In this document: positions 11,947 to 44,206 of the stretch, in pieces
Layout: every line of letters starts with the position of its first letter
How positions within the stretch are numbered: the stretch's first letter is position 1
Assembly: GCA_965261735.1 (NCBI GenBank)
Contig: OZ253470.1
Location: 357,728 to 421,727 of the forward strand
Source of the DNA: Alphaproteobacteria bacterium
GTDB taxonomy: Bacteria > Pseudomonadota > Alphaproteobacteria > SHVV01
DNA: 64,000 bases
Reading direction: 5' to 3'
Program-made: the position numbers and the translations under genes
Notes under the pieces: model-generated
The model's database searches: none
What the model was told of the DNA's origin: nothing
The model's input: the letters and a program-made list of their open reading frames with translations, nothing else

Positions 11947-12438
11947 TCCGGGCACTTCCTGGTCAGACTGGTCGACTATCTCGCCGACGGAGTGATTGCG
12001 GCCATGGCCGAGGCGGAAGCGTTGGTAGAGGGCTATGTCTCGCCGCTCGTGAGCCTGATACAGGCCATCCGCGACAGGATCGTGGCGAACGCCGAGGAGC
12101 GCGCTTGGGTCATTGACCGGGACCGACTCGACGACCGCCACATCGTCCGGCGCATGGTCCTCAAGCGCTGCGTCTACGGTGTCGACAAGAACCCCATGGA
12201 GGTGGAGCTGGTCAAGGTCGCGTTGTGGCTGCGCACCTTCACGGTCGGCGCGCCGCTCAGCTTCCTGGATCACCATCTTCGCTGCGGCGATAGCCTGTTT
12301 CGGCGCATGGGCACGGGACGGGGTCGACAAGGCGACCGAGTATGGCAGCCCGTTGCTTCTGCACGGCTCTGTCACCCAGGCGGGACTTGCCGCGCGGGAA
12401 ATGCAGACTATCGAGGAGTTGACCGACGCCGAGATCGC
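11947..12438 (+). pseudogene. N6-adenine DNA methyltransferase remnant (type IIG/BREX PglX-like), frameshifted and interrupted
   Basis: It reads [54 protein letters not shown], the same block order as the large methyltransferase at 27598. There is a frameshift near 12300. IS256 is inserted at 12439 and the reading resumes at 13834, stopping at 13872. Confidence 0.6.
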
Positions 12439-13833
12439 GGCTGTGTCTCGAAAGTGGTGGAAATTTGAGGATGGCGTAATCTCCGGGTGACAAGACAACC
12501 ACCCAATCGGCGGCTAGCACCGCCAAGGAGATCACGCCATGAAGAACACTACCGAGACTTCCGCGCTTTCGCTACTGGCCAATGACGCCGGCTATGATCC
12601 GATCGAGGACCGGCTGCGGGAGAACATCAGATCCACGATCGAGGCCGTTTTTGAGGAGGAACTTGCGCAGTTTCTCGGGCGCTGCCGATACGGTCGAGAG
12701 GACGCGCTTCGGCAAGGGTATCGGAACGGGCACCGGGAGCGGCAACTGACGGGGACATTCGGGACCGAGAGGGTGAGCGTGCCGCGTGCGCGGATCGTTG
12801 AGGAAGACGGTCGGGCGTCGGAATGGCGTTCGCGGGCGCTGCCGCGCTACCAGCGGCTGACCAGAAAGGCCGAGGCGCTGATCGCTTCGGTGTATCTGTC
12901 CGGAACCAACACGCGGCGGGTGAAACGCGCGCTGTTCGGGCTCTTCCGGGGTGCTGTGAGCAAGGACGTTGTGAGCCGGGCGTGGCGCAAGGTGAAGGTC
13001 GATTGGGACGCCTGGTGCAGCCGTGGCCTCGCGGATGAGGATATCGTTCGGCTGATCCTTGACGGCACTGTGATCAAGATCCGACTGGACCGCAAGGCCA
13101 CCAACATCTCGGTTCTCGCGGCTATAGGGGTGCGCCGGGATGGCCAGAAGGTCTTGCTTTCGATCGGGAATATGGGCGGAGAAAGCCAGGCGGCGTGGCG
13201 CCAGTTCCTCGACGACCTTGATGCGCGTGGACTGAAACGGCCCGGGTTTGTCATCGTCGATGGCGCGCCGGGACTGGAGGCGGCTCTGTCGGCGCTTTGG
13301 GGCGATGACCTTCCCGTTCAACGCTGCACCGTGCACAAGCACCGCAACCTTCTGGGTCATGCTCCCAAACACATGCATGACGAGCTGAGCGAAGATTACC
13401 GCGATATGATCTATGCTGACACTGCCTCCGAGGTGGAAACCCGCCGCAAGGCGTTTGTCCGCAAGTGGCGGCTGAAATGCAGGGCCGTCGCGGACAGCCT
13501 CGCAGAAGCGGGCGACAAGCTCTTTACCTTCAACGCGCCTGTCCAAGAGCCAATGGAAATCAGCCCGAACGACCAACGCCATTGAGCGTCTCAACGAGGA
13601 GTTCAAGCGCCGGATCAAAACACAGACCGTGCTGCCGTGTCCCGAAACAGTGCCGATGCTCCTCTGGGCGCTCCTCGCTTCCGGCCAAATCCAGATGCGC
13701 AAAGTCGATGGATGGGAAACCCTCGATCAGCTAATCGCCGACGAAACCCTTGACCGCGCGGCCTGACCGCCGCAAAACTCAACCCGCTCGGAGAGGCGCC
13801 AAAACCAATTTCCACCACTTTCGAGACACAACC
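12439..13833 (+). mobile_element. IS256-family element, copy A
   Basis: IRs are GGCTGTGTCTCGAAAGTGGTGGAAAT / ATTTCCACCACTTTCGAGACACAACC. It is flanked by the 8-bp direct repeat GAGATCGC (12431-12438 and 13834-13841). Confidence 0.9.
12539..13766 (+). pseudogene. IS256 family transposase, frameshifted
   Basis: Identical to the intact 408-aa copies except for an extra A near 13532 (TTCAACGCG versus TTCACGCG). This shifts the frame (..FTFNAPVQEP.. instead of ..FTFTRLSKSQW..). Confidence 0.85.
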
Positions 13834-13909
13834 GAGATCGCCGAGGCGCACCGCTCCGCCGAGACCCTCTGAGACAGGTCTGCGCTGGCCGGCCCGCCGC
13901 CGTCCGCGT

Positions 13910-17238: not shown

Positions 17239-18261
17239 ATGGAACAGGTTCACATGATCGGGATCGATCTGGCGAAGAACAGCTTTCAGCTGCACGGTGC
17301 GCGGGCGGATGGGTCGGTTGCGTTCCGCAAGAAGCTGAGCCGGGCGAAGCTGTTGGACTTTGTGGCTGCGCAGCCACGCTGCACGGTGGCGATGGAGGCG
17401 TGCGGCGGCGCGCACCATTGGGGCCGGGAGATCGGCAGTCTCGGCCATGCGGTGCGACTGGTCCCACCGATCTACGTCAAAGCGTACGTCAAGCGGCAAA
17501 AGAACGACGCGTCGGATGCGGAGGCGATCTGCGAGGCGTCGTCGCGGCCGACCATGCGCTTTGTGGCTGTGAAGACGGAGGAACAGCAGGCTCGGGGCAT
17601 GCTGTTCCGGACGCGCGATCTTCTGGTGCGCCAGCGCACCCAGACGATTAATGCGCTGCGCGGCCATCTGGCGGAGTTCGGTGTCATTGCCCCGCAGGGG
17701 CCGGCTCATGTCGGCCGGCTGGCCTCGGCGCTTGAGGGACCGGCTTCGAGGTTGCCGGAAGCGGTCCGCGAGCTGGCCGGCCTTCTGCTTGAGCAGATCG
17801 CCGGCCTCGATGCGAAGATTGCGGGCCTGGAGAGGGAGGTCCACGTGAGAGCACGGCAGGATGAGGAGGCGAGGCGCCTGATGAGCGTGCCGGGGATCGG
17901 GCCGATCAGCGCGATGGCAATCCAGGCCTTCGCACCGCCGATGGAGAGTTTCCGGCGCGGCCGCGACTTCTCCGCTTGGCTCGGCCTCGTGCCGCGCCAG
18001 CACACGACCGGCGGCAAGCCGAAGCTGGGCAAGATATCGAAGATGGGCCAGCGCGATCTGAGACGGCTGCTGATCACAGGCGCGATGACTGTGGTCCGCT
18101 GGGCGGTTCGGCGCGGCGTGACGACGGACCCCTGGCTGGCCGGGATGCTGGCGCGCAAGCCGAGGATGCTCGTCGCGGTGGCGCTGGCCAACAGGATGGC
18201 GCGCATCGTCTGGGCGCTACTGACGAAGAAGGAGAGCTACCGGGCTCCCGCCACCGCCTGA
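17239..18261 (+). CDS. IS110 family transposase
   Basis: 340 aa with IGIDLAKNSF, MEACGGAHHW, KNDASDAEAI, and C-terminal SVPGIGPISAMAI..FSAWLGLVPRQHTTGGK. Confidence 0.9.
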   Translation: MEQVHMIGIDLAKNSFQLHGARADGSVAFRKKLSRAKLLDFVAAQPRCTVAMEACGGAHHWGREIGSLGHAVRLVPPIYVKAYVKRQKNDASDAEAICEASSRPTMRFVAVKTEEQQARGMLFRTRDLLVRQRTQTINALRGHLAEFGVIAPQGPAHVGRLASALEGPASRLPEAVRELAGLLLEQIAGLDAKIAGLEREVHVRARQDEEARRLMSVPGIGPISAMAIQAFAPPMESFRRGRDFSAWLGLVPRQHTTGGKPKLGKISKMGQRDLRRLLITGAMTVVRWAVRRGVTTDPWLAGMLARKPRMLVAVALANRMARIVWALLTKKESYRAPATA

Positions 18262-22120: not shown

Positions 22121-22363
22121 AACTGGGTTCGTTATGTATGATTTTATACCATTGATTTAATTGATAATTTATATGTTTTCATTTCTTCCGTAAGCGGAAC
22201 GCAAGCGAATTCGATCAAACTACAGCGCTTGCGGGCGCATCTCTGACGTAGCTCCCGCTTAACAAACGGGGGGGCATTGCTGCGCCCCGCCCCTCACAGA
22301 CGTAGTAACGATTCGGTCATGCCGGGATGAGCGGGGAAGAGCGCGCCCGCCGGGCGCTGTAGG

Positions 22364-22590
22364 TCAGCGTCGTTTGACGTTGAGGGGGAGTGCGGCGAGA
22401 CCTCGGACGACAGTTGATCGCCGGTAGCGGGGCACGGCCGTAGCGAGTTCGATGGTGCCGAGCGTGCGGAGCGCCTCGGTAAAGACAGCGCTTGCTTCCA
22501 CGCGCGCAAGTTCGGCACCGATGCACTGGTGGACGCCGTGTCCGAACGATGTGTGCCGGAGGCCTCTTCCACTGCGATCAGCCGGATTGA
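22364..22590 (-). pseudogene. cytochrome P450 C-terminal fragment
   Basis: The minus-strand reading HTSFGHGVHQCIGAELARVEASAVFTEAL..LPLNVKRR* contains the FGxGxHxCxG heme-binding loop. Only about 70 residues are present. Confidence 0.7.
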
Positions 22591-22671
22591 TCCTTCCTCG
22601 CCTTTTCTCCAGCGTTGAAACGCGATAGTCTTGGCGCTAGATTTCTGACAAACTGGCTTGGAGACACGAAC

Positions 22672-23268
22672 ATGCGCGGCCTTCCCAAGCGCATCATGGA
22701 GTATGCCGAGGCCCTTCCGGAGGCCACGCCGCTGTGTCCGGCCGCCCTGCTTCATCTCGGCAACCGGGCGGCGGTCGACCAGGCTTTGTGGCGCCTTGCC
22801 CGTTCGGGCCGGCTCATGCGGATCTGCCAGGGCGTCTACATGCGCCCGGTCGAAACCCGTTTCGGCCTTCGGGCGCCCCGTGTTGGCAAGGCGCTGGCCG
22901 CGCTGTCGAAGATGTGGGGTGAAACGATCGTGCCGTGCGGTGGCTCCGCGGCCAACTGCCTGGGTCTGACCACGCAGAATCCGGTGCGCGCGGTCTATCT
23001 CACCTCCGGTCCCAACCGCCGGTTGCACTTTGGCTCGTCCATAGTCGAGCTGCGTCACGCTCCCCGCTGGCAACTGGCGGCCCCGCACCGCAAGGCGGGA
23101 GACGTCATCCGCGCTCTGGCATGGCTCGGTCCCGAAGAGGTCGAGAACAGCCTCGAAGCGGTCCTGCCGACGCTCTCCGAGGCGGACCGGGACGAGCTCG
23201 CGGCCGCGCGAGCCGTCATGCCCATCTGGATGGCGGAACCGGTGAGCACGCGCCTTTCGCATGGCTGA
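22672..23268 (+). CDS. abiEi: type IV toxin-antitoxin system AbiEi-family antitoxin-like protein
   Basis: 198 aa from MRGLPKRIMEYA (GGAGA upstream). Size, the RLARSGRLMRICQGVYMRP block and its position directly upstream of, and overlapping, an AbiEii gene fit the AbiEi/DUF6088 type. Confidence 0.7.
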   Translation: MRGLPKRIMEYAEALPEATPLCPAALLHLGNRAAVDQALWRLARSGRLMRICQGVYMRPVETRFGLRAPRVGKALAALSKMWGETIVPCGGSAANCLGLTTQNPVRAVYLTSGPNRRLHFGSSIVELRHAPRWQLAAPHRKAGDVIRALAWLGPEEVENSLEAVLPTLSEADRDELAAARAVMPIWMAEPVSTRLSHG

Positions 23269-24283
23269 GACGCGATACCAGGACCTCTCGGCCGACGACA
23301 GGCGCGACGCTCTGGAAGTGGCGGAGCGCAGCGGCAGCCATAAGGCGCATCTTCTGGAGAAGGATGTCTGGGTCGTCGCGACGCTCGGCGTCCTGTTCGA
23401 CGCGCCGTTCTCCGGTCACCTGACCTTCAAGGGCGGCACGTCGCTGTCGAAAGTATGGCGCGCGATCCGCCGATTCTCCGAAGACATCGACATCACTTAC
23501 GACATTCGCGCCTTCGCGCCAGACCTGGTTTCCGGCGCCGGCGCCGAGGCGATTCCGCCCACGCGCAGTCAGGAGAAGCGGTGGACGCGGGCAATCCGAG
23601 ACCGTCTCGCCGAATGGGTTCGCGATCGGGCCTGCCCGATCGTCGAAGAAGGGCTTGGACGTGCCGGTTTCGTGGCGCGGATCCGTGCCGAGGCGGAGCG
23701 GCTCTACATCGGATACGAGCCGCTGTTCGAGGAGACCAGATTCGTGCGTCCGGAGGTCATGGTCGAGTTCGGCGCCCAATCCACGGGCGAACCGCACAGA
23801 ATCCTGTCGGTCGTGTGCGACGCGGCAGCTTACTTGCCCGATCTGGCGTTTCCCGAGACGCGCCCGACCGTCATGCTCGCGGAACGCACCTTCTGGGAGA
23901 AGGCGACCGCCATCCACGTCTTCTGCCGCCAGGAGCGGCGCCGGGGCCAGCGCCTGTCGAGGCACTGGCACGATCTTGCGCGCCTCGACGAGGCGGGCAT
24001 TGCGGCGAGCGCGCTGGCCGACCGTGCGCTCGCGCTTTCGGTCGCCCGCCACAAGGCCATGTTCTTCGCCGAGAACGATGCCCACGTTAACCGGATCGAC
24101 TATGAGGCGGCGGTCTCGGGAGGCCTCCAACTCGTTCCCGCAGGGGCCGCGCATGCGGTACTCGCCGACGACTACGCGAGAATGCTGGCCGACGGCATGC
24201 TGCTCGACGAGAGCGAACCGTTCGATGCGCTGATGGAGCTGTGCGCCGCGATCGAGACGAGAGCAAACGGACAGAAGGAATGA
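23261..24283 (+). CDS. abiEii: nucleotidyltransferase AbiEii/AbiGii toxin family protein
   Basis: LTFKGGTSLSKVW and SEDIDITYD are NTase motifs typical of AbiEii. The start overlaps the abiEi stop (ATGGCTGA). Confidence 0.85.
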   Translation: MAETRYQDLSADDRRDALEVAERSGSHKAHLLEKDVWVVATLGVLFDAPFSGHLTFKGGTSLSKVWRAIRRFSEDIDITYDIRAFAPDLVSGAGAEAIPPTRSQEKRWTRAIRDRLAEWVRDRACPIVEEGLGRAGFVARIRAEAERLYIGYEPLFEETRFVRPEVMVEFGAQSTGEPHRILSVVCDAAAYLPDLAFPETRPTVMLAERTFWEKATAIHVFCRQERRRGQRLSRHWHDLARLDEAGIAASALADRALALSVARHKAMFFAENDAHVNRIDYEAAVSGGLQLVPAGAAHAVLADDYARMLADGMLLDESEPFDALMELCAAIETRANGQKE

Positions 24284-27200
24284 CAGCGCTCTCCCCCGAA
24301 CCCGGCCGGATTGCGCTGGTGCGACAGCGCCGATATCTCGTCGAGAACGTGACGCCGCCCCCATCGCTCGACGACGCGACGCTGGTCGATCTTTCTTGCC
24401 TCGACGACGACGCGCAGGGCGAACCTCTTTCGGTGTTGTGGGAGAATGAGCTCGACGCCCGCGTGCTTGAGGACGACGGCTGGTCTGGGGTCGCCGACAA
24501 GGGCTTCGACGATCCGATGCTGTTCGCGGCCTATCTCCGTACGCTGTCGTGGAACTGCGTGACGGCAACCGACCCGAATCTCTTTCAGGCGCCGTTCCGT
24601 GCCGGCATCCGCATCGACGCCTATCAGCTCGACCCACTGCGCAAGGCGCTCAGGCTGCCGCGCGTCAATCTGTTCATCGCCGACGACGTCGGGCTCGGCA
24701 AGACCATCGAGGCCGGACTCATTGCGCGCGAACTGCTGTTGCGCCGCCGCATCGACCGGATCGTCGTTGCGTGTCCGCCCGCGATGCTGGACCAATGGCA
24801 GGATGAGCTGGAGGCCCGATTCGGTCTCACTTTCGCCATTCTCGACCATACATATGTGACGCGAATGCGCCGCGAACGCGGCTTCTCGGTCAATCCCTGG
24901 ACCACCCACTCCCGCTTTCTGATCTCTCACCGCCTTCTCGTCGACGAGGCCTACGCATCAGGTTTGCGCGACTGGCTTGGCGAGTTCGCCCCCCGATCGC
25001 TCCTAATCCTCGACGAAGCGCACAACGCCGCCCCCGCGAGCGGCGCCCGGTACGCAATCGATTCGCAAATCACGCGCGCCGTACGCGACATCGCGCCTCG
25101 TTTCGAGCATCGTCTGTTCCTTTCGGCGACGCCGCATAACGGGCATTCGAACAGCTTTTCTGCCCTGCTTGAGATTCTCGACCCGCAACGCTTCTGCCGT
25201 GGGGTTCGCGTACTCAAGGGGCAGCTCGACGAGGTGCTGGTCCGGCGCCTCAAGTCCGATATCCGGGAGCTCGAAGGTGGTTTTCCGAAACGCTCCGTGG
25301 TCCCGGTCGAAATCGACGGGCTGCCAATGGACGCGCCTGAGCTCGTGTTGCCGAGGATGCTGGATGCCTACCGCCTTGAGCGGGAAAGACGGCTCAAGAA
25401 CGAATCGCGGTCGCAGCAGACGGCTGGCGCATTGGTGATTGGCGGGCTGCAAAAGCGTTTGTTGTCATCCATTGAGGCATTCGCGAAAACGCTCTCGGTG
25501 CATCGGAAGAGTGTGGAACGCGCGCTGGAAAGGGCGGAGGCAGCCCCAGCGATCTCGGCTGCGCTGCGGGCCGATCTCGAACGATTGACCGCCGGCGCGG
25601 ATCCCGACACCGAAATGACTGGCACGGCCGATCATGACCACGAGGCCGGCGGCGAGATCGGCGAGCCGGACGATGCCGAACGATCCGATCCGTCCGAACT
25701 GGGATTCGATGATCTGATGACGACGGCGACCGCGGCATCGACAGACAGCAGCCGGGCGGAAGCACGGACGGCGTTGATGAGCGAACTCGCTCTTGTCGAC
25801 GAGATGCTCGATGTGGCCGAGGCGAGCCGCTACGACGCCGATCCGCGCGTTCGCAAGATCATCGATTGGATCGAGGCAAATATGTGCTGGGGGCTGTCGG
25901 CGCCCGGTGCCACACCTCCGCGATGGAACGACCACCGCCTTCTCATCTTCACCGAATACGAGGACACGCGACGTTGGCTCCAACGCTGCCTGAATGAGGC
26001 GATCGCGTGTTCCGACGGAGCGTCCGAACGGATTGCCGCCTTCACGGGGATGACCTCCCGCCACAGGCGAGAAGACATCAAGCACGCCTTCAACACTGAG
26101 CCCGGCGACCACCCGCTGCGCATTCTCATCGCAACCGACGCCGCACGTGAGGGGCTCAATCTACAACGCCATTGCCATGACCTTTTTCACTTCGATCTGC
26201 CCTGGAACCCGAGCCGTCTCGATCAACGCAACGGCCGTATCGACCGCAAGCTGCAGCCGGCCGACGAAGTGTTCTGCCGTTACTTCGTCTATTCCCAGCG
26301 GCCCGAGGACCACGTTCTACAAGTATTGGTAAACAAGATGGAACGCATCCGGCAAGAACTCGGTAGCGTCGCGAAGGTCCTCGAGGGGCGCATTGCACGG
26401 ACCATCGGTGCACAAGGCATGCAACGCGACGGGCTCGACAAACTTGCGGCCTTCATCGAGGATCTGTCGCCCGGAGAGCAACAGCGAGCCGTCGACGACG
26501 AACTCGAGGATGCGCGTCTTCGCCAGGACAGGCTGCGCGAAGAAGTCGACGGCCTCCGCACCCGACTGGAACGTTCGCGCACCCATATCGGTCTCACCGC
26601 TCCACAGTTTCGCCAGACCCTGTCAATGAGCCTGAGGCTCGCCGGCGCTCCCGGAATCGCGGAGGCGGATCGGGACGGGGAGCAAGAACCCGACACCCCG
26701 CGCCGTTTCATCTTTCCAGCCGACGATCACGCGCTCGCGAGCGACTCCGGCTGGACCGCGGCGCTAGATGCCTTGCGTGCGCGCAGGCAGAGAAGGGAGA
26801 ACTTCGGCGAGTGGCGACGGCGGGCCGCCATTCGGCCAGTTACTTTCGAGGACACTGGCCGGCTCGGCGAGAACGCCGTGCAACTCCATCTCGAGCACCG
26901 CGTGACCCGGCGCCTGCTGGCCCGGTTCACCGCACAAGGCCTGATCCACCACGATCTGTCCAAGGCCTGTCTGACCTTGGCTCCCGATGCGATCCCGCGG
27001 GTCGTGCTGCTCGGTCGACTCGCTGTTTACGGACCGCGCGCTTCGCGCCTCCACGAGGAGATGGTGCCGGTGACGGCACGTTGGATCGATCCCGAACGGC
27101 GGCAGGACGCGCTCGCGCCCTACGGCCGGGCCGGCGAGCAAACGACAATGGCTTCCCTACAGACGGCGCTCGACGAAGCCGGGCAAGACAGAGTTCCGGA

Positions 27201-27594
27201 CCAAGTCCGGAAACGTCTCGCCGTGTCGGCGCAAGCCGATATCGCGGATCTCCTCCCGCATCTGGAACGTCGCGCAGCCGACTTCGCCGAGCAGGCGAAG
27301 AGACGCCTTGCCGAACGGTCGGATGCCGAAAAGCGCAGTATGATCGAATTGCTACAGCGCCAGCGGAAGAGGATTGCCGAGACCGCCGGCAAGGACGACC
27401 GACAACAGATGTTCGACTTCGATGAAGCGGAACGGCGTCAGCGCGAAGCCGACCGTCGCGCCTGGGCCCGGCGCCTTGAAGCCATCGAGACCGAACTCAA
27501 GACCGAGCCGCGCCGGATCGCCGACACGTACAGGGTAAGCGCCATCCGCGTCGATCCGATCGGCCTCATCTATCTCTGGCCGCGGACGGGATAG
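24280..27594 (+). CDS. SNF2-family helicase, DISARM DrmD-like
   Basis: It carries the motifs ADDVGLGKTIEAG (I), LILDEAHNA (II), LFLSATPHNG (III), ILIATDAAREGLNLQ (V) and WNPSRLDQRNGRIDR (VI). The N-terminus PGRIALVRQRRYLVENV and the position directly upstream of a giant N6-MTase match DrmD as I recall it. The start is taken at MTALSPE, where the ATG overlaps the abiEii stop (ATGA). Confidence 0.8.
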   Translation: MTALSPEPGRIALVRQRRYLVENVTPPPSLDDATLVDLSCLDDDAQGEPLSVLWENELDARVLEDDGWSGVADKGFDDPMLFAAYLRTLSWNCVTATDPNLFQAPFRAGIRIDAYQLDPLRKALRLPRVNLFIADDVGLGKTIEAGLIARELLLRRRIDRIVVACPPAMLDQWQDELEARFGLTFAILDHTYVTRMRRERGFSVNPWTTHSRFLISHRLLVDEAYASGLRDWLGEFAPRSLLILDEAHNAAPASGARYAIDSQITRAVRDIAPRFEHRLFLSATPHNGHSNSFSALLEILDPQRFCRGVRVLKGQLDEVLVRRLKSDIRELEGGFPKRSVVPVEIDGLPMDAPELVLPRMLDAYRLERERRLKNESRSQQTAGALVIGGLQKRLLSSIEAFAKTLSVHRKSVERALERAEAAPAISAALRADLERLTAGADPDTEMTGTADHDHEAGGEIGEPDDAERSDPSELGFDDLMTTATAASTDSSRAEARTALMSELALVDEMLDVAEASRYDADPRVRKIIDWIEANMCWGLSAPGATPPRWNDHRLLIFTEYEDTRRWLQRCLNEAIACSDGASERIAAFTGMTSRHRREDIKHAFNTEPGDHPLRILIATDAAREGLNLQRHCHDLFHFDLPWNPSRLDQRNGRIDRKLQPADEVFCRYFVYSQRPEDHVLQVLVNKMERIRQELGSVAKVLEGRIARTIGAQGMQRDGLDKLAAFIEDLSPGEQQRAVDDELEDARLRQDRLREEVDGLRTRLERSRTHIGLTAPQFRQTLSMSLRLAGAPGIAEADRDGEQEPDTPRRFIFPADDHALASDSGWTAALDALRARRQRRENFGEWRRRAAIRPVTFEDTGRLGENAVQLHLEHRVTRRLLARFTAQGLIHHDLSKACLTLAPDAIPRVVLLGRLAVYGPRASRLHEEMVPVTARWIDPERRQDALAPYGRAGEQTTMASLQTALDEAGQDRVPDQVRKRLAVSAQADIADLLPHLERRAADFAEQAKRRLAERSDAEKRSMIELLQRQRKRIAETAGKDDRQQMFDFDEAERRQREADRRAWARRLEAIETELKTEPRRIADTYRVSAIRVDPIGLIYLWPRTG

Positions 27595-27597
27595 ATC

Positions 27598-30500
27598 ATG
27601 GCGGATCGCGCACGTCGCAACCTGATCTTCGCCCACCAGGAATGGCTTGGCTTCGTCCAGCCCGTGGGCCTCCTATTGTCGCCAATCATCATGGTCGACG
27701 CCCAGGTCGTGCCCGACCGCAACATCTCGTGGCGCCAGCGCGAGTTTCGCGACCTGCTCGAAGAGGACGGAAGCGGTGCCACGGCCCGCTGGATTGCGCC
27801 CAACCTCCGCCGAGTGTTTCTCGGCTATCTGGGCTGGGAAGAAGGCGACCTTTTGGACGCGCTCGACCATCGGGACGCGCTGGAAATTGCCCTTCCCGAG
27901 TTGCAGGTCGTGCTCTCGCCCACCTGGGCCGTGCCGGCTGAAGAAGACCCGGACGCTGCATGGACGATGCTCGTTCGCGTCGAGGACGGCGGCGTCGACC
28001 TCGATAAACCCACCGGCGACGGCGCAGGGTGGAACGCCACTCGGCACGCCCGATTCGAACGGCTGTTGCGAGAGACCGACGTGCCGATCGGGTTGCTTTG
28101 CACCGATGAGGGTGTTCGTCTGATCCACGCGCCCAGGGGCGAGTCGTCGGGGTATGTAACCTTCGAGTTCTCGCAGATGGCGCTGCCGGCAGGCCGGCCC
28201 ATCCTGGCCGCATTCGACATGCTGTTGTCGGCGGACGCACTCTTCGGTGGTTACCCCGAGGCTCGGCTGCCGGCGCTTCTGGCCAAGAGCCGCGATGCGC
28301 AGGCCGAAGTCTCCACGAGACTTTCTCGTCAGGTACTCGCGGCGCTGCATGAATTGCTTCGGGGCTTTGTCTCGGCAGACGCGCGCGGCGGCGGAACCGT
28401 GACCGACATCGCGCGGCGCGATCCCGATCACCTTTACGGCGGACTGATCACGACGCTGATGCGGCTCGTCTTCGTGCTTTACGCCGAAGACCGGGGCCTG
28501 ATGCCTGGTCATCCCGTGTACCAGCAGCACTATTCCCTAGGCGGCCTTTTCGCCCGCTTGCGCGCCGATGCGGCGACTTGGCCCGATACCATGGACCAGC
28601 GTTTCGGCGCCTGGGCGCAGCTGCTTTCGTTATTCCGGCTAATCCACGGCGGCGGCGGACACGCCGGCCTCTCGTTTGTCGCACGCAAGGGTACGCTGTT
28701 CGATCCACACCGTTTCCCGTTCCTCGAAGGACGCGGGCCAGAGCAGAAGCCGGCAATTCCGATGGTCCCGGACGCTAGCGTCTGGAAGGTGTTGCAGTCG
28801 TTGATGGTGCTAGACGGCGAGCGGCTGTCTTACCGCACACTCGATGTCGAGCAGATCGGTTCTGTGTACGAGGCCATCATGGGCTTTCGCGTCGAGCTGA
28901 CCCCCGGGCGGTCGATCGCCGTGGCGTCGCCGAAACGGACCGGCGCCGCGGTTGTCGTCGACCTCGACCGTTTGCTCGAACTGGAAGGTGGCAAGCGTGC
29001 GAAGGCTTCCACGATTGTAGATGTTGTGGCGGCGCTTGACCGAGCGGTCGACCGCGACGCGACTCCGGACGTTGTTCCCGCTGGAACTCCTGTCCTTCAG
29101 CCGACGGACGAGCGGCGGCGGTCCGGCAGCCACTATACGCCGCGCTCTTTGACTGAACCGATCGTTTCCGAAGCTCTGCGTCCGATACTCGAACGTCTGG
29201 GACGGAATGCGCGGCCCGAAGACATTCTCGACCTCAAGGTTCTCGACCCAGCAACCGGTTCGGGTGCCTTCCTGGTCGAGGCCTGCCGTCAACTGTCGGC
29301 GCGACTGGTCGAGGCCTGGAGCGTTCATGGCGGACCGCCTGACCTGCCCGCCGACGAAGACGAGTTGCTTCACGCCCGGCGACTTGTCGCCCAGCGATGC
29401 ATCTATGGCGTCGACAAGAATTCGATGGCTATCGATCTGGCGCGGCTTTCGCTGTGGCTGGTTACCCTCGCGCGGGATCATGAATTCACCTTCATAGATC
29501 ACGCCCTGCGCCACGGTGATTCGCTGGTTGGTCTCACGCGCAACCAGATCGAAGGATTCCATTGGGATGCCGAGGCACCGAGTTTTCAGCTCGGAATGGA
29601 GACAATGGAGGTGCAAAAGCACGTGGCCCGGGTCTCCGAGATGCGCCAACTGATCCGCGAACTTGGTGACGAGGCCCCTGAGCACGAACTGCGGGAGCTT
29701 CTGGACGAGTCCGAGCGTGAACTCAGGAACGTTCGCCGGGTCGCTGACCTGGTGTTGACGGCGTTCTTCGATGGAGGAAAGCCGAAGGAACGTGAGAGCA
29801 AGCGGGTCATGTACGGGAGTCTGCTTCTCGGAAGGGACCAAGCCGTGACCGCTTCGCCTGCGGCAGCAAAGTTGCCGGTCGCTCCCCTCCATTGGGAGTT
29901 AGAGTTTCCGGAGGTGTTCGAGCGCGAGAATCCGGGCTTCGATGCGGCAGTCGGTAATCCGCCATTCCTTGGCGGGAAACGAATCAGCACCGTACTTGGA
30001 AACCGGTTTCGAGACTGGCTGATAGCTCTGCATCCCGAAGCGAACAGCAATGCAGACTTGGTCGCGCATTTCTTTCGTAGAGTCTTTGAGTTGCTGCGCA
30101 AAGGAGGTGGTCTTGGTCTAGTCTCCACGAACACCATAAGCCAAGGCGACACAAGAGCCACGGGGTTGCGTTGGATCTGCAAGAACGGTGGTGTGATCCA
30201 CCGCGCCCGACGACGGCTCAAGTGGCCCGGCGAGGCGGCCGTAGTAGTAAGTGTAGTTCATATTGCAAAGGGGGCTTATGCGGGTTCCAGGACGCTCGAC
30301 GATCACCGGGCATCTGTGATCACCGCTTTTCTGTTTCATAGTGGTGGTAACGATGACCCGGTTCGTCTGAAAGCGAATTCTGAAAAAAGCTACGTGGGCA
30401 TGTACTTGCGGGGCATGGGCTTCACTTTCGACGATACTGACACCAAGAACGTCGCCACATCGCTTGCAACAATGAATCGTCTGATCGAAGCGAACACTCG

Positions 30501-31719
30501 CAATAGGGACGTGATCTTTCCCTACATCGGCGGAGAGGAGGTCAACACCAGCCCGGCCCATGCCCACCACCGCTACGTCATCAACTTCCGCGACTGGCCG
30601 CTGCGCCGCGCAGATATGGGTGCAACGTGGCTGGACGCAGACGAAGGCACGAGGCGCGACTGGCAGCGCGACGGGATCGTACCGCTTGACTATCCGGAGC
30701 AAGTGGCTGCGGACTATCCGGAGCTATTGTCAATTGTGGAAGAGCATGTTCGACCCACTCGACTAAGACTCGGAGAATCAGCGATTGACAGAGTCCACAA
30801 GCGTCGTTGGTGGTTGTATGCAAATGATCGCCCTCAGCTCCAACAGGCAGTCAGTAGCCTCGATCGCGTGCTTGTAATTTCCGAGATTGGCCAACATGGG
30901 GCGTTCGCATTTTTGCCAAGTCGCATGATCTTTTCCCATACGCTAAAGGTCTTCTCTCTCGATACTTACGCCGCCTTATGCGCCCTCCAGTCCCGCCCCC
31001 ACGAAATCTGGGCCCGTTTCTTCGGATCGTCGCTGGAAGATCGGCTTCGCTACACACCCTCCGACTGTTTCGAGACTTTCCCATTCCCCGAGAACTGGGA
31101 ATCGTGCCCCGCACTCGAAGCGGCGGGTGAGGCGTACTATGATTTGCGTGCGGCGTTGATGGCCGAGAACAACGAGGGACTTACAAAAACCTACAACCGT
31201 TTTCACGATCCGGACGAGCGCGATTCCCGGATCGACCGGCTCCGTCAGCTTCACGCCGCAATGGACCGCGTCGTTCTGGAAGCCTATGGCTGGACCGACA
31301 TTCCTACCGATTGCGAGTTCTTGTTGGATTACGAGATCGACGAAGAGACCTGGGGCAAGAAGAAGAAACCCTGGCGCTACCGCTGGCCCGATGAAGTCCG
31401 CGACGAAGTGCTCGCGCGCCTGTTGGCCCTCAACACCCAGCGCGCGGCCGAGGAGCGTATGGCCGGAAGTGGTGTGCGTCTTCCGGCGTTAGCCACCAGC
31501 ACCTACAAGCCTACCTCAACGAGTTCACCTTCCGCTTCAACAGGCGGTTCTACCCGTTCAACGCCTTCCGCTCATTGCTCGGCATCGCGGGCGACACCTC
31601 TGCTCCAACCTATGCCGAGCTTTACTCGGGAGAAGAGCCAAGCTTTGAGACCTGCAGATTCGCGATCTGGCGAGGCAAGCCGAACCCGACAGCAGCGCGG
31701 ACGGCGGCGCAATCGGTGA
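27598..31719 (+). CDS. large gamma-class N6-adenine DNA methyltransferase (Eco57I/type IIG-like, DrmMI-like), 3' end chimeric
   Basis: VLDPATGSGAFLVEA (motif I), YGVDKNSMAIDLARLSLWL, HALRHGDSLVG and AAVGNPPFLGG (motif IV) are present. From about 31470 the ORF reads an IS1595 remnant out of frame, so the last ~80 codons are not native. Confidence 0.8.
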   Translation: MADRARRNLIFAHQEWLGFVQPVGLLLSPIIMVDAQVVPDRNISWRQREFRDLLEEDGSGATARWIAPNLRRVFLGYLGWEEGDLLDALDHRDALEIALPELQVVLSPTWAVPAEEDPDAAWTMLVRVEDGGVDLDKPTGDGAGWNATRHARFERLLRETDVPIGLLCTDEGVRLIHAPRGESSGYVTFEFSQMALPAGRPILAAFDMLLSADALFGGYPEARLPALLAKSRDAQAEVSTRLSRQVLAALHELLRGFVSADARGGGTVTDIARRDPDHLYGGLITTLMRLVFVLYAEDRGLMPGHPVYQQHYSLGGLFARLRADAATWPDTMDQRFGAWAQLLSLFRLIHGGGGHAGLSFVARKGTLFDPHRFPFLEGRGPEQKPAIPMVPDASVWKVLQSLMVLDGERLSYRTLDVEQIGSVYEAIMGFRVELTPGRSIAVASPKRTGAAVVVDLDRLLELEGGKRAKASTIVDVVAALDRAVDRDATPDVVPAGTPVLQPTDERRRSGSHYTPRSLTEPIVSEALRPILERLGRNARPEDILDLKVLDPATGSGAFLVEACRQLSARLVEAWSVHGGPPDLPADEDELLHARRLVAQRCIYGVDKNSMAIDLARLSLWLVTLARDHEFTFIDHALRHGDSLVGLTRNQIEGFHWDAEAPSFQLGMETMEVQKHVARVSEMRQLIRELGDEAPEHELRELLDESERELRNVRRVADLVLTAFFDGGKPKERESKRVMYGSLLLGRDQAVTASPAAAKLPVAPLHWELEFPEVFERENPGFDAAVGNPPFLGGKRISTVLGNRFRDWLIALHPEANSNADLVAHFFRRVFELLRKGGGLGLVSTNTISQGDTRATGLRWICKNGGVIHRARRRLKWPGEAAVVVSVVHIAKGAYAGSRTLDDHRASVITAFLFHSGGNDDPVRLKANSEKSYVGMYLRGMGFTFDDTDTKNVATSLATMNRLIEANTRNRDVIFPYIGGEEVNTSPAHAHHRYVINFRDWPLRRADMGATWLDADEGTRRDWQRDGIVPLDYPEQVAADYPELLSIVEEHVRPTRLRLGESAIDRVHKRRWWLYANDRPQLQQAVSSLDRVLVISEIGQHGAFAFLPSRMIFSHTLKVFSLDTYAALCALQSRPHEIWARFFGSSLEDRLRYTPSDCFETFPFPENWESCPALEAAGEAYYDLRAALMAENNEGLTKTYNRFHDPDERDSRIDRLRQLHAAMDRVVLEAYGWTDIPTDCEFLLDYEIDEETWGKKKKPWRYRWPDEVRDEVLARLLALNTQRAAEERMAGSGVRLPALATSTYKPTSTSSPSASTGGSTRSTPSAHCSASRATPLLQPMPSFTREKSQALRPADSRSGEASRTRQQRGRRRNR

Positions 31720-31754
31720 GGTTCGACCATCCGGCGATCGGCGGACGGAGATAC
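31475..31754 (+). pseudogene. IS1595-family transposase C-terminal remnant
   Basis: The alternative frame reads GVSHQHLQAYLNEFTFRFNRRFYPFNAFRSLLGIAG.., the extreme C-terminus of IS1595-type transposases. It is interrupted by IS256 copy B at 31755. Confidence 0.6.
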
Positions 31755-33148
31755 GGTTGTGTCTCGAAAGTGGTGGAAATTGGTTTTGGCGCCTCTCCGA
31801 GCGGGTTGAGTTTTGCGGCGGTCAGGCTGCGCGGTCAAGGGTTTCGTCGGCGATTAGCTGATCGAGGGTTTCCCATCCATCGACTTTGCGCATCTGGATT
31901 TGGCCGGAAGCGAGGAGTGCCCAGAGGAGCATCGGCACTGTTTCGGGACACGGCAGCACGGTCTGTGTTTTGATCCGGCGCTTGAACTCCTCGTTGAGAC
32001 GCTCAATGGCGTTGGTCGTTCGGGCTGATTTCCATTGGCTCTTGGACAGGCGCGTGAAGGTAAAGAGCTTGTCGCCCGCTTCTGCGAGGCTGTCCGCGAC
32101 GGCCCTGCATTTCAGCCGCCACTTGCGGACAAACGCCTTGCGGCGGGTTTCCACCTCGGAGGCAGTGTCGGCATAGATCATATCGCGGTAATCTTCGCTC
32201 AGCTCGTCATGCATGTGTTTGGGAGCATGACCCAGAAGGTTGCGGTGCTTGTGCACGGTGCAGCGTTGAACGGGAAGGTCATCGCCCCAAAGCGCCGACA
32301 GAGCCGCCTCCAGTCCCGGCGCGCCATCGACGATGACAAACCCGGGCCGTTTCAGTCCACGCGCATCAAGGTCGTCGAGGAACTGGCGCCACGCCGCCTG
32401 GCTTTCTCCGCCCATATTCCCGATCGAAAGCAAGACCTTCTGGCCATCCCGGCGCACCCCTATAGCCGCGAGAACCGAGATGTTGGTGGCCTTGCGGTCC
32501 AGTCGGGTCTTGATCACAGTGCCGTCAAGGATCAGCCGAACGATATCCTCATCCGCGAGGCCACGGCTGCACCAGGCGTCCCAATCGACCTTCACCTTGC
32601 GCCACGCCCGGCTCACAACGTCCTTGCTCACAGCACCCCGGAAGAGCCCGAACAGCGCGCGTTTCACCCGCCGCGTGTTGGTTCCGGACAGATACACCGA
32701 AGCGATCAGCGCCTCGGCCTTTCTGGTCAGCCGCTGGTAGCGCGGCAGCGCCCGCGAACGCCATTCCGACGCCCGACCGTCTTCCTCAACGATCCGCGCA
32801 CGCGGCACGCTCACCCTCTCGGTCCCGAATGTCCCCGTCAGTTGCCGCTCCCGGTGCCCGTTCCGATACCCTTGCCGAAGCGCGTCCTCTCGACCGTATC
32901 GGCAGCGCCCGAGAAACTGCGCAAGTTCCTCCTCAAAAACGGCCTCGATCGTGGATCTGATGTTCTCCCGCAGCCGGTCCTCGAGCGGATCATAGCCGGC
33001 GTCATTGGCCAGTAGCGAAAGCGCGGAAGTCTCGGTAGTGTTCTTCATGGCGTGATCTCCTTGGCGGTGCTAGCCGCCGATTGGGTGGTTGTCTTGTCAC
33101 CCGGAGATTACGCCATCCTCAAATTTCCACCACTTTCGAGACACAGCC
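31755..33148 (-). mobile_element. IS256-family element, copy B (intact)
   Basis: Same IRs as copy A, with a perfect 8-bp target duplication GGAGATAC (31747-31754 and 33149-33156). Confidence 0.9.
31822..33048 (-). CDS. IS256 family transposase
   Basis: Intact 408-aa mutator-type transposase (..GYRNGHRERQLTGTFGTERVSVPRAR..LILDGTVIK..VIVDGAPGLEAAL..RCTVHKHRN..). Confidence 0.9.
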   Translation of the reverse strand: MKNTTETSALSLLANDAGYDPLEDRLRENIRSTIEAVFEEELAQFLGRCRYGREDALRQGYRNGHRERQLTGTFGTERVSVPRARIVEEDGRASEWRSRALPRYQRLTRKAEALIASVYLSGTNTRRVKRALFGLFRGAVSKDVVSRAWRKVKVDWDAWCSRGLADEDIVRLILDGTVIKTRLDRKATNISVLAAIGVRRDGQKVLLSIGNMGGESQAAWRQFLDDLDARGLKRPGFVIVDGAPGLEAALSALWGDDLPVQRCTVHKHRNLLGHAPKHMHDELSEDYRDMIYADTASEVETRRKAFVRKWRLKCRAVADSLAEAGDKLFTFTRLSKSQWKSARTTNAIERLNEEFKRRIKTQTVLPCPETVPMLLWALLASGQIQMRKVDGWETLDQLIADETLDRAA

Positions 33149-33247
33149 GGAGATACCGTGAATACGCTCACCCGTTCTGATGGTTGGTCGCCGTTTGCTC
33201 GCTTGCATGGAACAGGGACGTTTATGCTGGCCAAAAACATAGTGACC

Positions 33248-36117: not shown

Positions 36118-36920
36118 GGCATTGACACGTTAACTGCCGCGTTCGGCACAATTGGATCGTGATCTGGATCAGGCAGCACACCAGCCTTGATTCCAGACAG
36201 CGAACGTCTCGGCTCGAAACGCCTTGAAAATGCGGCGGGGTAAAAGATGGCGCTGGACGTAGAAAGCGTTGTAGACGGCGGCGTGGATTGAAAGGAACCG
36301 TTGGGCGGATCCCGGTGAATTGAACCGCTGTTGTTTTCGTTCGCGTCGACGTACCGGCTGGTGTGAATTCTCGGCTCGATTGTTCGCCCGCAATCCCTGA
36401 TCGTGAATAGCGGTAAGTCGCTCTTTGCGGATCGCAACAGCGTAGGATTTGAGCTTGTCCGTGGTAATGCGCTTCGGCGCAAAGCCCTGCTTCTTCAGCA
36501 GCTTCCGCAGCAACCTCTGCGCCGATCGGGCGCAGCGTCGTGGCTGGACCAGGAAGTCGAGAACTTCACCTTCGTCGTCGACCGCCCGCCACAGCCAATG
36601 TCTTCGGCCGCGGATCCTGATGATCATTTCGTCAAGGTGCCAACGAGCACTGGCACGTGGACGGCTGCGGCGAAGATTGCCTGAGATCAGGCGCCCGAAT
36701 TTCAGAAACCAGCGTCGCACCGTCTCGTTCGAGACATCGATACCGCGCTCGGCCAGCAGGTCCTCGACATCGCGAAATGACAGCGTGAACCGAGCATAGA
36801 GCCAGACCGCATGCTGGATGATCTCTGGCGAAAAACGATGTCGCTTGAAAGAAATTGGCGTCATACGCCGACGGTAGCGGCCCCTGCCCGATCCGGCCAC
36901 CGACTTAACGTGTCAATGCC
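36118..36920 (-). mobile_element. IS6-family element, type 2, copy 1
   Basis: IRs are GGCATTGACACGTTAA / TTAACGTGTCAATGCC. Near-identical to 41598..42399 and 44207..45009. Confidence 0.9.
36169..36864 (-). CDS. IS6 family transposase
   Basis: MTPISFKRHRFSPEIIQHAVWLYARFTLSFRDVEDLLAERGIDVSNETVRRWFLKFG. 231 aa, as in the plus-strand copy. Confidence 0.9.
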   Translation of the reverse strand: MTPISFKRHRFSPEIIQHAVWLYARFTLSFRDVEDLLAERGIDVSNETVRRWFLKFGRLISGNLRRSRPRASARWHLDEMIIRIRGRRHWLWRAVDDEGEVLDFLVQPRRCARSAQRLLRKLLKKQGFAPKRITTDKLKSYAVAIRKERLTAIHDQGLRANNRAENSHQPVRRRERKQQRFNSPGSAQRFLSIHAAVYNAFYVQRHLLPRRIFKAFRAETFAVWNQGWCAA

Positions 36921-37212: not shown

Positions 37213-37843
37213 TGTCAACGGCGGAGCAAAATTAGTCCACCCGGGCGGAGCAAAACTAGTCCACTTAACGTTATGCGGTACGCGGTGTTGGGGGGTTGTC
37301 CCGGTAGTCCATAGGAGGGACCCGCGCTGCTTCGAGTAGCGCTTGCGTTACGCGGAGCGAAGCAGCGTGGGAGGTTCCTGTGGACCCACCGGGTCAACCA
37401 TTGCACTGGCGGTTAAGCAGGTATTTTGGGGATTTTCGCCGTTTTTGGCTTTGGTTGAGACGATAGCTCTCGCCGTTCATTTCCAGGATATGGACATGGT
37501 GGGTGAGGCGGTCCAGCAAAGCCCCGGTCAGGCGTTCCGAGCCGAATATCTCCGTCCACTCATCGAACGGCAAGTTGGAGGTCACCAGGATCGAGCCCCG
37601 CTCGTAGCGCTGGCTGAAGACTTCGAACAGCAGCTCGGCGCCGGTCTTCGAGAGCGGCACGAAGCCGAGTTCGTCGATGATCAGAAGGTGATACTTTGCC
37701 AGTTGCTTCTGCAGGCGCAACAGGCGTTTTTCATCCCTGGCCTCCATCCGTTCATGAACCAGGGCAGCGGCCGTGAGGAAGCCGACGGAGAGCCCCTTTT
37801 GGCAGGCCGCCAGACCGAGACCGAGGGCGATATGGGTCTTGCC
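37213..37843 (-). mobile_element. IS21-family right-end fragment with the C-terminal 150 codons of istB
   Basis: Collinear with 52045..52677 of the full copy, including the terminal repeats CGGCGGAGCAAAATTAGTCCAC / GGGCGGAGCAAAACTAGTCCAC. It is cut inside the IstB Walker A region by IS6 at 37844. Confidence 0.85.
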
Positions 37844-38649
37844 GGCATTGTCACGTTAACAGCGTGGCTTCGGCACGGCCGGTGCTTTAGCGTCTCTGGA
37901 TGTGCAAGATATCCTACCGTCGTCACCGCTTTCCACCGGTCATCATCCAGCATGCCGTCTGGCTCTATTGCCGTTTCACGCTGAGCTATCGGGACGTTGA
38001 TGACCTGCTTGCCGAGCGTGGTCTCGACATCTCGTATGAGACAGTTCGAAGATGGGTCTTGAAATTCGGTCGGGCCTATGCGCGGCGGATTCAACGTCGG
38101 CGGCCACGACCGACCGAACGCTGGCACCTGGACGAGATGGTCGTCGTAATTCGAGGGAGGCAGTTCTATCTCTGGCGTGCCGTGGACAGTGAGGGCGAAG
38201 TCCTGGATTTCCTGGTTCAATCCCGCAGGAACGCTCGGGCGGCAATTCGGCTGATGCGGAAACTCTTGAAGAAGCAGGGCTTCGCGCCGGCGACGATTGT
38301 AACCGATAAACTCCGCTCCTACGGCACCGCGATCCGTTTGCTTGCCCTCTCGGCTCAGCATGAGCAAGGCCTGCGAAAGAACAATCGGGCAGAAAATTCA
38401 CATCAGCCGGTGCGACGACGAGAGCGAAAGATGCAGCGGTTCAAATCGCCCGCGTCCGCGCAGCGGTTCCTCGCCGTCCATGCGACCGTCTACAACCTCT
38501 TCAACGTCCAACGCCATCTGGTCTCCCGCCGAACACTCCGCCAATTCCGCGGCGACGCGATGAGACAGTGGCGGCAAGTGACGACCGTTGCATAATCTCC
38601 GGCGTCGGCGCCCACAAGCTGGCCAAATGGCGGTTAACGTGACAACGTC
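37844..38649 (+). mobile_element. IS6-family element, type 1, copy B
   Basis: GGCATTGTCACGTTAAC at the left and GTTAACGTGACAACGTC at the right. The transposase differs by one residue from copy A. Confidence 0.85.
37900..38595 (+). CDS. IS6 family transposase
   Basis: 231 aa, near-identical to 6167..6862. Confidence 0.9.
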   Translation: MCKISYRRHRFPPVIIQHAVWLYCRFTLSYRDVDDLLAERGLDISYETVRRWVLKFGRAYARRIQRRRPRPTERWHLDEMVVVIRGRQFYLWRAVDSEGEVLDFLVQSRRNARAAIRLMRKLLKKQGFAPATIVTDKLRSYGTAIRLLALSAQHEQGLRKNNRAENSHQPVRRRERKMQRFKSPASAQRFLAVHATVYNLFNVQRHLVSRRTLRQFRGDAMRQWRQVTTVA

Positions 38650-43940: not shown

Positions 43941-44206
43941 TCAAACGTCGAGCACCAGATCGGTCGTAAGGGTCGCGCAACAAATCAGCACTTGACCTCG
44001 GTCTGGCGCGTCTAGGGGCTCGTCGCGGTATTCGACGGCGCCTTCGGTGAGCTCGCACATGCACGTGTGGCAAATGCCCGAGCGGCAGCTATTCGGAATA
44101 TCGATGAGAAGGCCTTGGGCCCGCTCCTGAGACCAAGATACGCCACGGAGGCCGCCGGACAGCGCCCGGGCGGTCGCCATCGCTGTGAGAGGGGAATGGT
44201 GTAATG
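43941..44206 (-). pseudogene. 2Fe-2S ferredoxin domain fragment of a PDR/VanB-type oxidoreductase
   Basis: CRSGICHTCMCELTEGAVEYRDEPL..VLICCA..LVLDV* is a plant-type 2Fe-2S C-terminal domain. It is cut by the IS6 end at 44207. Confidence 0.6.

Follow-up and report, generated by a model that had tools for sequence, protein, structure and literature searches.

An AbiE-led class 1 DISARM operon, very probably cut short by deletion, in an alphaproteobacterial contig

The stretch of DNA analysed here, referred to as the window, comprises 64,000 nucleotides of contig OZ253470.1 (assembly GCA_965261735.1, an alphaproteobacterial genome) and carries four co-directional genes, abiEi, abiEii, drmD and drmMI, in which an AbiE toxin-antitoxin pair precedes the helicase and methyltransferase genes of a class 1 DISARM defence system. 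From profile searches, comparisons with related loci and an analysis of its downstream end, the locus very probably represents the 5' part of a class 1 DISARM operon led by AbiE, the effector genes having been deleted, with AbiE as a separable module. A prior reading made from the letters of the sequence only had left two alternatives, a beheaded class 1 DISARM or a distinct four-gene system. The first is supported by relatives that carry drmA, drmB and drmC and by a homology to them that stops eight codons before the drmMI stop codon, at a probable fragment of an IS1595-type insertion sequence (IS). The second fared poorly as no related locus ends cleanly after drmMI.

The class 1 DISARM system (drmD-drmMI-drmA-drmB-drmC) was first described by Ofir et al. 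2018, as cited in bioRxiv 10.1101/2021.12.28.474362. It has been characterised in Serratia sp. SCBI, where DrmA and DrmB act as the chief effectors and DrmC is not required (bioRxiv 10.1101/2021.12.28.474362).

Identity and packing of the four genes

The helicase matches the NCBIfam equivalog NF038317 (DISARM_DrmD) with 1036 bits against a cutoff of 610 over residues 6-1103, and the PADLOC DrmD model with 1016 bits; its best solved relatives are RapA proteins. Since the 1021-position equivalog is matched end to end, DrmD contains no extra domain. Of its motifs, I (GLGKT, 138), II (DEAH, 245), III (SAT, 282) and VI (QRNGRIDR, 649) are intact. The methyltransferase is matched by the PADLOC DrmMI model PDLC02643 with 1261 bits, type IIG profiles scoring far lower, and contains the Pfam domains MmeI_Mtase, Eco57I, N6_Mtase and MmeI_TRD along with the motifs DPATGSG (550) and NPPF (787). 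The catalytic motifs of both proteins are present. Pairwise ratios of nonsynonymous to synonymous substitution (dN/dS) of 0.125 for DrmD and 0.148 for DrmMI show no relaxation of selection, and neither gene contains a frameshift or a premature stop. The features of class 1 DISARM found in the window are DrmD and a drmMI gene that adjoins drmD. Judged by these profiles, the two proteins are the DrmD-DrmMI pair of class 1 DISARM and no ordinary type I or IIG restriction-modification pair. The proposal that an SNF2 helicase and a giant N6-adenine methyltransferase represent DrmD-DrmMI is borne out by NCBIfam and PADLOC alike, and the placement of the pair in an ordinary type I or IIG family, which had been named as a possible objection, does not agree with best profiles that are DISARM-specific.

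A nuclease fold at a protein C-terminus, raised as a point to check, did not emerge, as an MmeI-type target-recognition domain, with a foreign tail behind it, makes up the DrmMI C-terminus. The N-terminal 520 residues of DrmMI (window 27598-29157) were modelled by AlphaFold with 53 homologues. The model (pLDDT = 86.8, pTM = 0.75) predicts that the N-terminal third is composed of a confidently folded alpha/beta domain and a long helical spacer. When the model was searched with Foldseek, no PDB match was obtained at E ≤ 1e-3, and the top, non-significant matches were putative restriction-endonuclease-like domains. The Pfam profile MmeI_N gives weak matches (E = 0.08 for the window protein, 2e-7 for one of the homologues), a conserved D...(D/E)xK signature is absent across the 53 homologues, and a PDB profile search with the N-terminal alignment returned methyltransferase regions only. 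From the model, the N-terminal domain may be an inactivated nuclease-like domain, and neither model nor sequence provides evidence that the remnant can cut DNA. Compared to MmeI-type (type IIL/IIG) restriction-modification enzymes, DrmMI has the same methyltransferase and target-recognition domains in the same order, and some of its homologues are labelled 'type IIL restriction-modification enzyme MmeI' by NCBI; however, its N-terminus matches MmeI_N below threshold and has no conserved nuclease triad, and its best profile is DrmMI.

The two leading genes encode an AbiE pair. AbiEi matches PADLOC PDLC02226 (E = 1.2e-54, residues 5-192) and Pfam DUF6088 (E = 3.5e-20), with AbiEi_3_N and AbiEi_4 both falling under Pfam's cutoff. 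AbiEii matches Pfam AbiEii PF08843 (E = 6e-32) and PADLOC PDLC02289 (E = 3.7e-92), and its nucleotidyltransferase motif KGGTS...EDIDI is intact at residues 57-78. As in other AbiE modules, the pair is bicistronic with overlapping genes, a two-domain antitoxin with an N-terminal winged helix and an antitoxin C-terminal domain coming first and a DUF1814 nucleotidyltransferase toxin with the GG...DxD motif second, and close homologues of the pair (50-71% identity) are ordinary free-standing modules. It differs in that the abiEii stop overlaps the start of an 1104-residue helicase gene, with no terminator-like or promoter-like site before that gene. AbiEi proteins repress their own promoter (PMC3985639, PMC7319586), and AbiEii is a DUF1814 nucleotidyltransferase toxin (PMC3985639, PMC7319586, bioRxiv 10.64898/2026.01.19.700257). 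The AbiEii of S. agalactiae is reportedly neutralised via antitoxin-induced auto-phosphorylation, and AbiE has lately been reclassified as type VII (both bioRxiv 10.64898/2026.01.19.700257); MenT toxins, which are homologous to AbiEii, inactivate tRNA acceptor stems (PMC7450476). Across 14 related loci abiEi is 81-90% identical, and with dN/dS values of 0.17 for abiEi and 0.17 for abiEii, next to 0.13 for drmD, both AbiE genes are under purifying selection. The pair in the window is apparently intact.

The start/stop coupling of the four genes holds at every coordinate that had been given for it. The abiEi ATG at 22672 is preceded by a GGAGA ribosome-binding site, and the abiEii start lies within the abiEi stop in an 8-nt overlap (ATGGCTGA at 23261-23268). 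The drmD start overlaps the abiEii stop by 4 nt (ATGA at 24280-24283), and the drmD TAG at 27592-27594 is followed by ATC and then by the methyltransferase ATG at 27598, the stop of this open reading frame (ORF) ending at 31719. The first three operon junctions are thus overlapping or nearly abutting. The packing of the four genes exceeds chance, and 10 other loci have the same pair of junction sequences. A single sigma-70-like site, TTGAAA-17 nt-TAGATT (22615-22643), was identified by a scan of 22300-31800, and terminator-like sites are absent from the gene junctions; three weak terminator-like matches all fall within drmD, and shuffled sequences give more. An internal promoter or terminator between abiE and the helicase, which would have argued against a functional link, was looked for in this way, and neither a promoter-like nor a terminator-like site was seen at that junction. 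The leader of ~65 nt that contains TTGAAA-17-TAGATT is kept in 14/14 related loci that retain abiEi, and DNA homology to the relatives begins at 22602-22640.

The truncated end of the operon and its intact relatives

DNA homology to the relatives extends from 22602 to 31487 and then ends, 8 codons before the native drmMI stop. The DrmMI proteins of the relatives end in ...AEERMAGSDVRLRAGNFRAAS*; the window diverges after ...AEERMAGSGVRL (...MAGSGVRL) and continues with 78 unrelated residues. The methyltransferase ORF of 1373 codons is chimeric, being native to about residue 1295 (nt 31483) and foreign over its last 78 codons. This tail is an out-of-frame read-through of a probable IS1595-type transposase remnant, whose own C-terminus, HLQAYLNEFTFRFNRRFYPF..., is encoded from 31500 in a frame other than that of drmMI. 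The peptide fits the last 19 positions (135-153 of 153) of DDE_Tnp_IS1595 with an E value of 6e-4, which is under the Pfam cutoff. The remnant also contains the motif YLNEFTFRFNRR, typical of the IS1595 family, and the DNA at 31484-31594 is 86.6% identical to sphingomonad plasmid DNA. At the junction drmMI is joined to the interior of the transposase gene, with no IS end.

A copy of IS256 (copy B in Table 1) is inserted 263 bp beyond the drmMI/IS1595 junction. Its transposase matches Pfam Transposase_mut with an E value of 1.8e-71, and the element is flanked by an 8-bp duplication, GGAGATAC, at 31747-31754 and 33149-33156. Because this target duplication is intact, copy B is a later simple insertion. 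The window holds three identical full copies of IS256 (12438-13834, 31755-33148 and 56524-57917), each bordered by a short direct repeat of its own, as well as a 476-bp partial copy at 45009-45484. The IS256 copies are simple insertions that are later than the deletion. An IS256-mediated deletion, or recombination among the three copies, was considered as the cause of the truncation and discarded since each copy keeps its own flanking direct repeat.

With queries from close relatives, no signal for DrmA, DrmB or DrmC was obtained in the 64-kb window even at E ≤ 1, so that the profile and relative searches agree with the sequence-only reading, which had recognised none of the three. That reading had also placed an IS1595 remnant and IS256 where drmABC would be expected. 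Both elements are present and IS256 lies directly downstream, but the remnant is not separate from the methyltransferase gene, as it forms the 3' end of the ORF. Likewise, the methyltransferase of 1373 residues with a long C-terminal region is a real ORF, but its last 78 codons are an artefact of the deletion. An exact-sequence match to the DrmMI or AbiEii of the window was not found in public assemblies. The features of the locus are collected in Table 1.

Table 1. Features of the AbiE-DISARM locus in window coordinates.
Feature	Position	Strand	Basis or remark
Conserved leader, sigma-70-like promoter and ribosome-binding site	22602..22671	+	Homology to related loci begins here
abiEi, 198 aa, antitoxin and winged-helix regulator of the AbiE pair	22672..23268	+	PADLOC and Pfam
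abiEii, 340 aa, DUF1814 nucleotidyltransferase toxin	23261..24283	+	Pfam and PADLOC
drmD, 1104 aa, full-length RapA-like SNF2 helicase of class 1 DISARM	24280..27594	+	NCBIfam NF038317
drmMI, native residues 1-1295 (about 1303 in full), N6-adenine methyltransferase, MmeI-like domain order	27598..31483	+	PADLOC DrmMI
Non-native 78-codon tail of the methyltransferase ORF	31484..31719	+	Counterpart in no relative; frame analysis
Probable IS1595-family 3'-terminal remnant	31484..31746	+	DDE_Tnp_IS1595 C-terminal match; right limit may run past IS256
IS256-family element, copy B; transposase 31822-33048	31755..33148	-	Transposase_mut and 8-bp target duplication

The relatives were collected by a DrmD scan with one genome per species, which gave 36 loci with 55-92% identity, all from metagenome-assembled genomes (MAGs) labelled Alphaproteobacteria, Gammaproteobacteria, Acidobacteriota, Binatia, Rhodothermales, Bacteroidota or Planctomycetota. 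The intact order is (abiEi-abiEii)-drmD-drmMI-[optional nested defence genes]-drmA-drmB-drmC. Downstream of drmMI, almost every uninterrupted locus encodes DrmA and DrmB and then a PLD-family protein of ~265 residues, and in relatives with a DrmD 70-86% identical to that of the window, drmA, drmB and drmC come directly after drmMI. In locus L024 the downstream genes score above the cutoffs of the curated models for DrmA (NF038325, 1128 bits against 950), DrmB (NF038324, 549 against 240) and DrmC (NF038319, 154 against 133), the last also matching Pfam PLDc_2. A check for drmABC downstream in intact relatives, as the earlier reading had suggested, found the genes directly after drmMI or after nested genes, and no related locus ends after drmMI save at a contig end or an IS. 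This is an outcome which that reading had itself named as counting against a new system. The window therefore resembles class 1 DISARM in having DrmD and DrmMI in canonical order with DISARM-specific profile matches and close relatives that hold the full set. It differs in being without drmA, drmB and drmC and in a drmMI that is without its last 8 codons, and the AbiE pair that precedes drmD and is translationally coupled to it sets the clade of the window apart.

Several relatives hold other small defence modules inside the DISARM operon. A candidate two-gene defence system, matched by PADLOC as PDC-M50 and made up of a protein of 153 residues and a ThsB-like TIR protein, is nested between drmMI and drmA in L006 (17322-18322), L009, L015 and L016. 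An AAA_21 ATPase occupies the same position in L025 (17435-19289) and L030 (15398-16762). The L025 ATPase matches the PADLOC NsnB/AriA models and is accompanied by an ORF of 205 residues without a family match; the L030 ATPase also has DUF3696 (Pfam scan only). In L013, a GNAT protein of 909 residues is encoded on the opposite strand between drmMI and drmA. The AbiE pair shares with these nested modules and with defence islands the association of a small defence module with DISARM; in contrast, it is positioned at the 5' end with the only recognisable promoter and is not an insert between DISARM genes.

Other observations concern the mobility and decay of these operons. L024 and L032 are two closely related complete class 1 DISARM operons on one alphaproteobacterial MAG chromosome (OZ219747.1, at 1.71 and 2.10 Mb). 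Loci whose DrmD is 70-86% identical to that of the window (within L003-L038) come from MAGs of at least six phylum labels, several of them from sponge microbiome studies, and this distribution points to a recent horizontal spread of the operon within one community type. A tRNA-His gene is located ~120 nt upstream of abiEi in L008 (8707-8782) and L011 (9188-9263). In L026 the tRNA-His gene (4071-4146) is 4.7 kb from abiEi, and a partial copy of its 3' end adjoins abiEi. Such an arrangement fits an AbiE-DISARM unit that would travel as a tRNA-integrated island. IS5, IS4, IS1380 and ISAs1 elements are found in or beside drmMI in four plasmids (Acidibrevibacterium L120, Nostoc L121, Bradyrhizobium L123 and Thiodictyon L002), drmD is truncated in L035, L037 and L038, and in L036 the contig ends within drmD. 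Insertion sequences frequently interrupt class 1 DISARM loci.

Inheritance and loss of the AbiE pair

Both AbiE genes are complete in 10 other loci (L004-L007, L009, L010, L016, L028, L037 and L038), where their lengths are identical (198 and 340 residues) and the junctions read ATG[G/C]CTGA and GAAGGnATGA. The 4-nt overlap of abiEii and drmD, together with the ribosome-binding-site-like GAAGG inside abiEii, is invariant in 11 loci. The presence of the same overlaps upstream of drmD in 10 other loci disposes of the concern, voiced in the sequence-only reading, that AbiE may be present in this genome only as a chance neighbour. In the DrmD tree, the loci with AbiE and those with AbiE remnants form one crown clade, with earlier branches that have no AbiE. 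On the evidence of this tree, the AbiE linkage dates to one acquisition.

Within the clade the pair has been lost to different degrees. In L008 and L026, abiEii carries an in-frame deletion of residues 132-301, and in L011 and L025 it is precisely deleted, with a full-length abiEi and the drmD initiation region kept. In these four loci with abiEii deleted or gutted, the full-length abiEi has dN/dS values of 0.16-0.21. Remnants of abiEii are all that is found in L003, L014, L015 and L036, and in L012 and L013, which also lie inside the clade, abiEii has left no trace. Loss has also gone the other way, as AbiE is kept beside damaged DISARM genes in L037, L038 and L040 (DrmD truncated) as well as in the window. 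A metagenome contig scan centred on AbiEii identified 80 AbiE pairs, of which 79 are free-standing (≤71% identity); only the closest, L040 with 79% identity, precedes a DrmD stub. Since loss goes both ways and the close AbiE relatives are free-standing, the AbiE linkage is facultative.

Locus L040 (MKWU01006818.1, 2070-7662) originates from an Aplysina aerophoba sponge metagenome (PMC5649159) and consists of a complete AbiE pair followed by the first 62 codons of drmD, after which a HATPase_c_3 protein and a DruA-domain protein are encoded. From this gene order, another defence module seems to have replaced the DISARM part of L040 while AbiE was retained. In loci without AbiE, short ORFs terminating at the drmD ATGA were considered as small antitoxins and discarded; they are either 3' remnants of abiEii (L003, L014 and L015) or unrelated ORFs that are not conserved.

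Class 1 DISARM loci on plasmids were also compared. None of 20 has AbiE, and three of the 20 have another toxin-antitoxin gene directly upstream. In a Methylocystis plasmid a lone Phd antitoxin gene abuts drmD (L001, 13055-13252), in an Acidibrevibacterium plasmid an RHH gene and a PIN toxin gene overlap drmD by 4 nt (L120, 2827-3510), and in a Nostoc plasmid VapC and YbaK are encoded directly upstream of drmD (L121, 2188-3062). A Thiodictyon plasmid (L002) encodes MqsA and SecB just before drmA. The three cases are suggestive of a recurrent recruitment of toxin-antitoxin genes ahead of drmD, and 3/20 is too few for a rule.

Readings of the locus and their meaning

The preferred reading of the window as the front of an AbiE-led class 1 DISARM operon may be set out as follows. 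In intact relatives, one transcript would run from the abiEi promoter through abiEi-abiEii-drmD-drmMI-drmA-drmB-drmC, and with one such transcript AbiEi would probably set the expression of DISARM and so of the genes downstream of the AbiE pair. AbiE would have entered this DISARM clade once, in its ancestor, and been passed on since as a separable unit that is no obligatory DISARM component. In the window, drmMI was very probably cut 8 codons short of its stop and fused by a deletion with the inner part of a putative IS1595-type transposase gene, after which IS256 inserted 263 bp further on. What remains is the apparently intact AbiE pair, a full-length DrmD translocase and a DrmMI with an altered C-terminal tail, the four genes presumably being co-transcribed from the abiEi promoter on a transcript that would now end in IS debris. 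DISARM interference, which is chiefly dependent on DrmA-DrmB, would be lost, and the locus would supply at most an AbiE-type growth arrest or addiction together with orphan N6-adenine methylation and a translocase. As DrmD and DrmMI are free of frameshifts and selection on them is not visibly relaxed, either the loss of DISARM would be recent or the two genes would still be of some use.

Several points weigh against this account. The co-transcription of the genes and their control by AbiEi are what we infer from promoter and junction sequences. The drmMI/IS1595 junction is located away from an IS end and so points to no mechanism for the deletion, and as it is represented by one sequence it could be an assembly join. 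DrmD and DrmMI are open with unrelaxed dN/dS values; the remnant may be under selection or the truncation may be recent. The drmABC genes could lie in another part of the genome, beyond the 64 kb. In Serratia, a drmABC deletion left some protection (bioRxiv 10.1101/2021.12.28.474362), so that DrmD-DrmMI may have some residual activity.

Three other explanations were considered. A self-sufficient four-gene system, in which AbiEii would work with the helicase-methylase pair and DrmABC would be unneeded, is consistent with four open ORFs with intact catalytic motifs, with selection on DrmD and DrmMI that is not visibly relaxed, and with the MmeI-like domain order of DrmMI, whose N-terminus is weakly MmeI_N-like and has a putative restriction-endonuclease domain as its top non-significant fold match. 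It is very improbable, however, as related loci do not end after drmMI unless cut by a contig end or an IS, and the window ends inside the drmMI coding sequence with IS debris next to it. Moreover, the N-terminal domain has neither the D...(D/E)xK signature in 53 homologues nor a significant structural match, and AbiE is dispensable in the relatives. That an AbiE pair landed by chance beside a DISARM fragment may be entertained in a region dense in insertion sequences, and AbiE pairs of this family occur often, for the most part free-standing. Nevertheless, the same lengths, junctions and promoter-bearing leader are found in 10 other loci from MAGs of different phylum labels, and decayed AbiE remnants are found at the same position in further loci. 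Taken with the single clade and the dN/dS values, these observations rule out a chance juxtaposition to near certainty.

The third explanation is a functional integration of AbiE into this DISARM lineage. AbiEi would repress the whole operon so that DISARM becomes inducible upon AbiEi titration or degradation, AbiEii would act as an abortive fail-safe, and the remnant in the window would still be a regulated unit. Such a role is suggested by the one conserved promoter upstream of abiEi with no second site in 9.5 kb, by the invariance of the 4-nt abiEii/drmD overlap with GAAGG in 11 loci, by selection on abiEi (dN/dS 0.16-0.21) in four loci after the loss of abiEii, and by the 3' end of abiEii that L011 and L025 keep with the drmD initiation region. 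Phd in Methylocystis and RHH and PIN in Acidibrevibacterium abut drmD in unrelated plasmids, and AbiEi proteins are known autorepressors (PMC7319586). Against it, an antitoxin that outlasts its toxin is also predicted by ordinary toxin-antitoxin decay, and DISARM occurs without AbiE, and with unrelated upstream DNA, in many loci of the clade and its surroundings. AbiE also persists beside destroyed DISARM genes in L037, L038 and L040, a toxin-antitoxin gene is directly upstream in only 3/20 plasmid class 1 loci with AbiE in 0/20, and after a single acquisition the conservation may be by descent only. On balance, functional integration is possible although unlikely. A broader and rather doubtful suggestion is that class 1 DISARM has repeatedly taken up toxin-antitoxin modules as 5' leader cassettes, AbiE in this clade and Phd or RHH-PIN in unrelated plasmids, with the antitoxin setting operon transcription and the toxin serving as an abortive back-up or, through addiction, to hold a costly operon in place. 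If true, this would represent an undescribed regulatory layer for DISARM.

Beyond the operon, the window is unusually rich in insertion sequences. It encodes IS110-type transposases (17239-18261 and 59386-60405), a Mu-like transposase (53250-54527) and a large serine recombinase (61219-62955). Five repeats of ~0.8 kb (6115-6921, 37841-38647, 36118-36883, 41634-42399 and 44206-44972), each with an ORF of ~230 residues, fall into two groups with 99-100% identity within and ~76% between them, and are probably small IS elements. A direct repeat of ~500 bp is found at 37213-37723 and 52045-52557, the copies being 94-100% identical and 14.8 kb apart.

Both nested defence modules and the presence of toxin-antitoxin genes in defence islands are already familiar. 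Full-text searches, including a recent survey of DISARM-related systems, found no description of an AbiE-led DISARM, and the layout appears to be undescribed; the sequence-only reading had likewise known of no described system with AbiE translationally fused into such an operon. For this genome, the locus is best annotated as a degraded DISARM with an intact AbiE pair, and neither as a working DISARM nor as a new system. The layout, with the AbiE promoter and the coupling to drmD, occurs in MAGs labelled Alphaproteobacteria, Gammaproteobacteria, Acidobacteriota (Terriglobia, Vicinamibacterales and Bryobacterales) and Binatia. With natural 'deletion mutants' of either module among its members, the clade provides a testable case for how a large and possibly costly defence operon is regulated, and for how it is retained or lost piece by piece.

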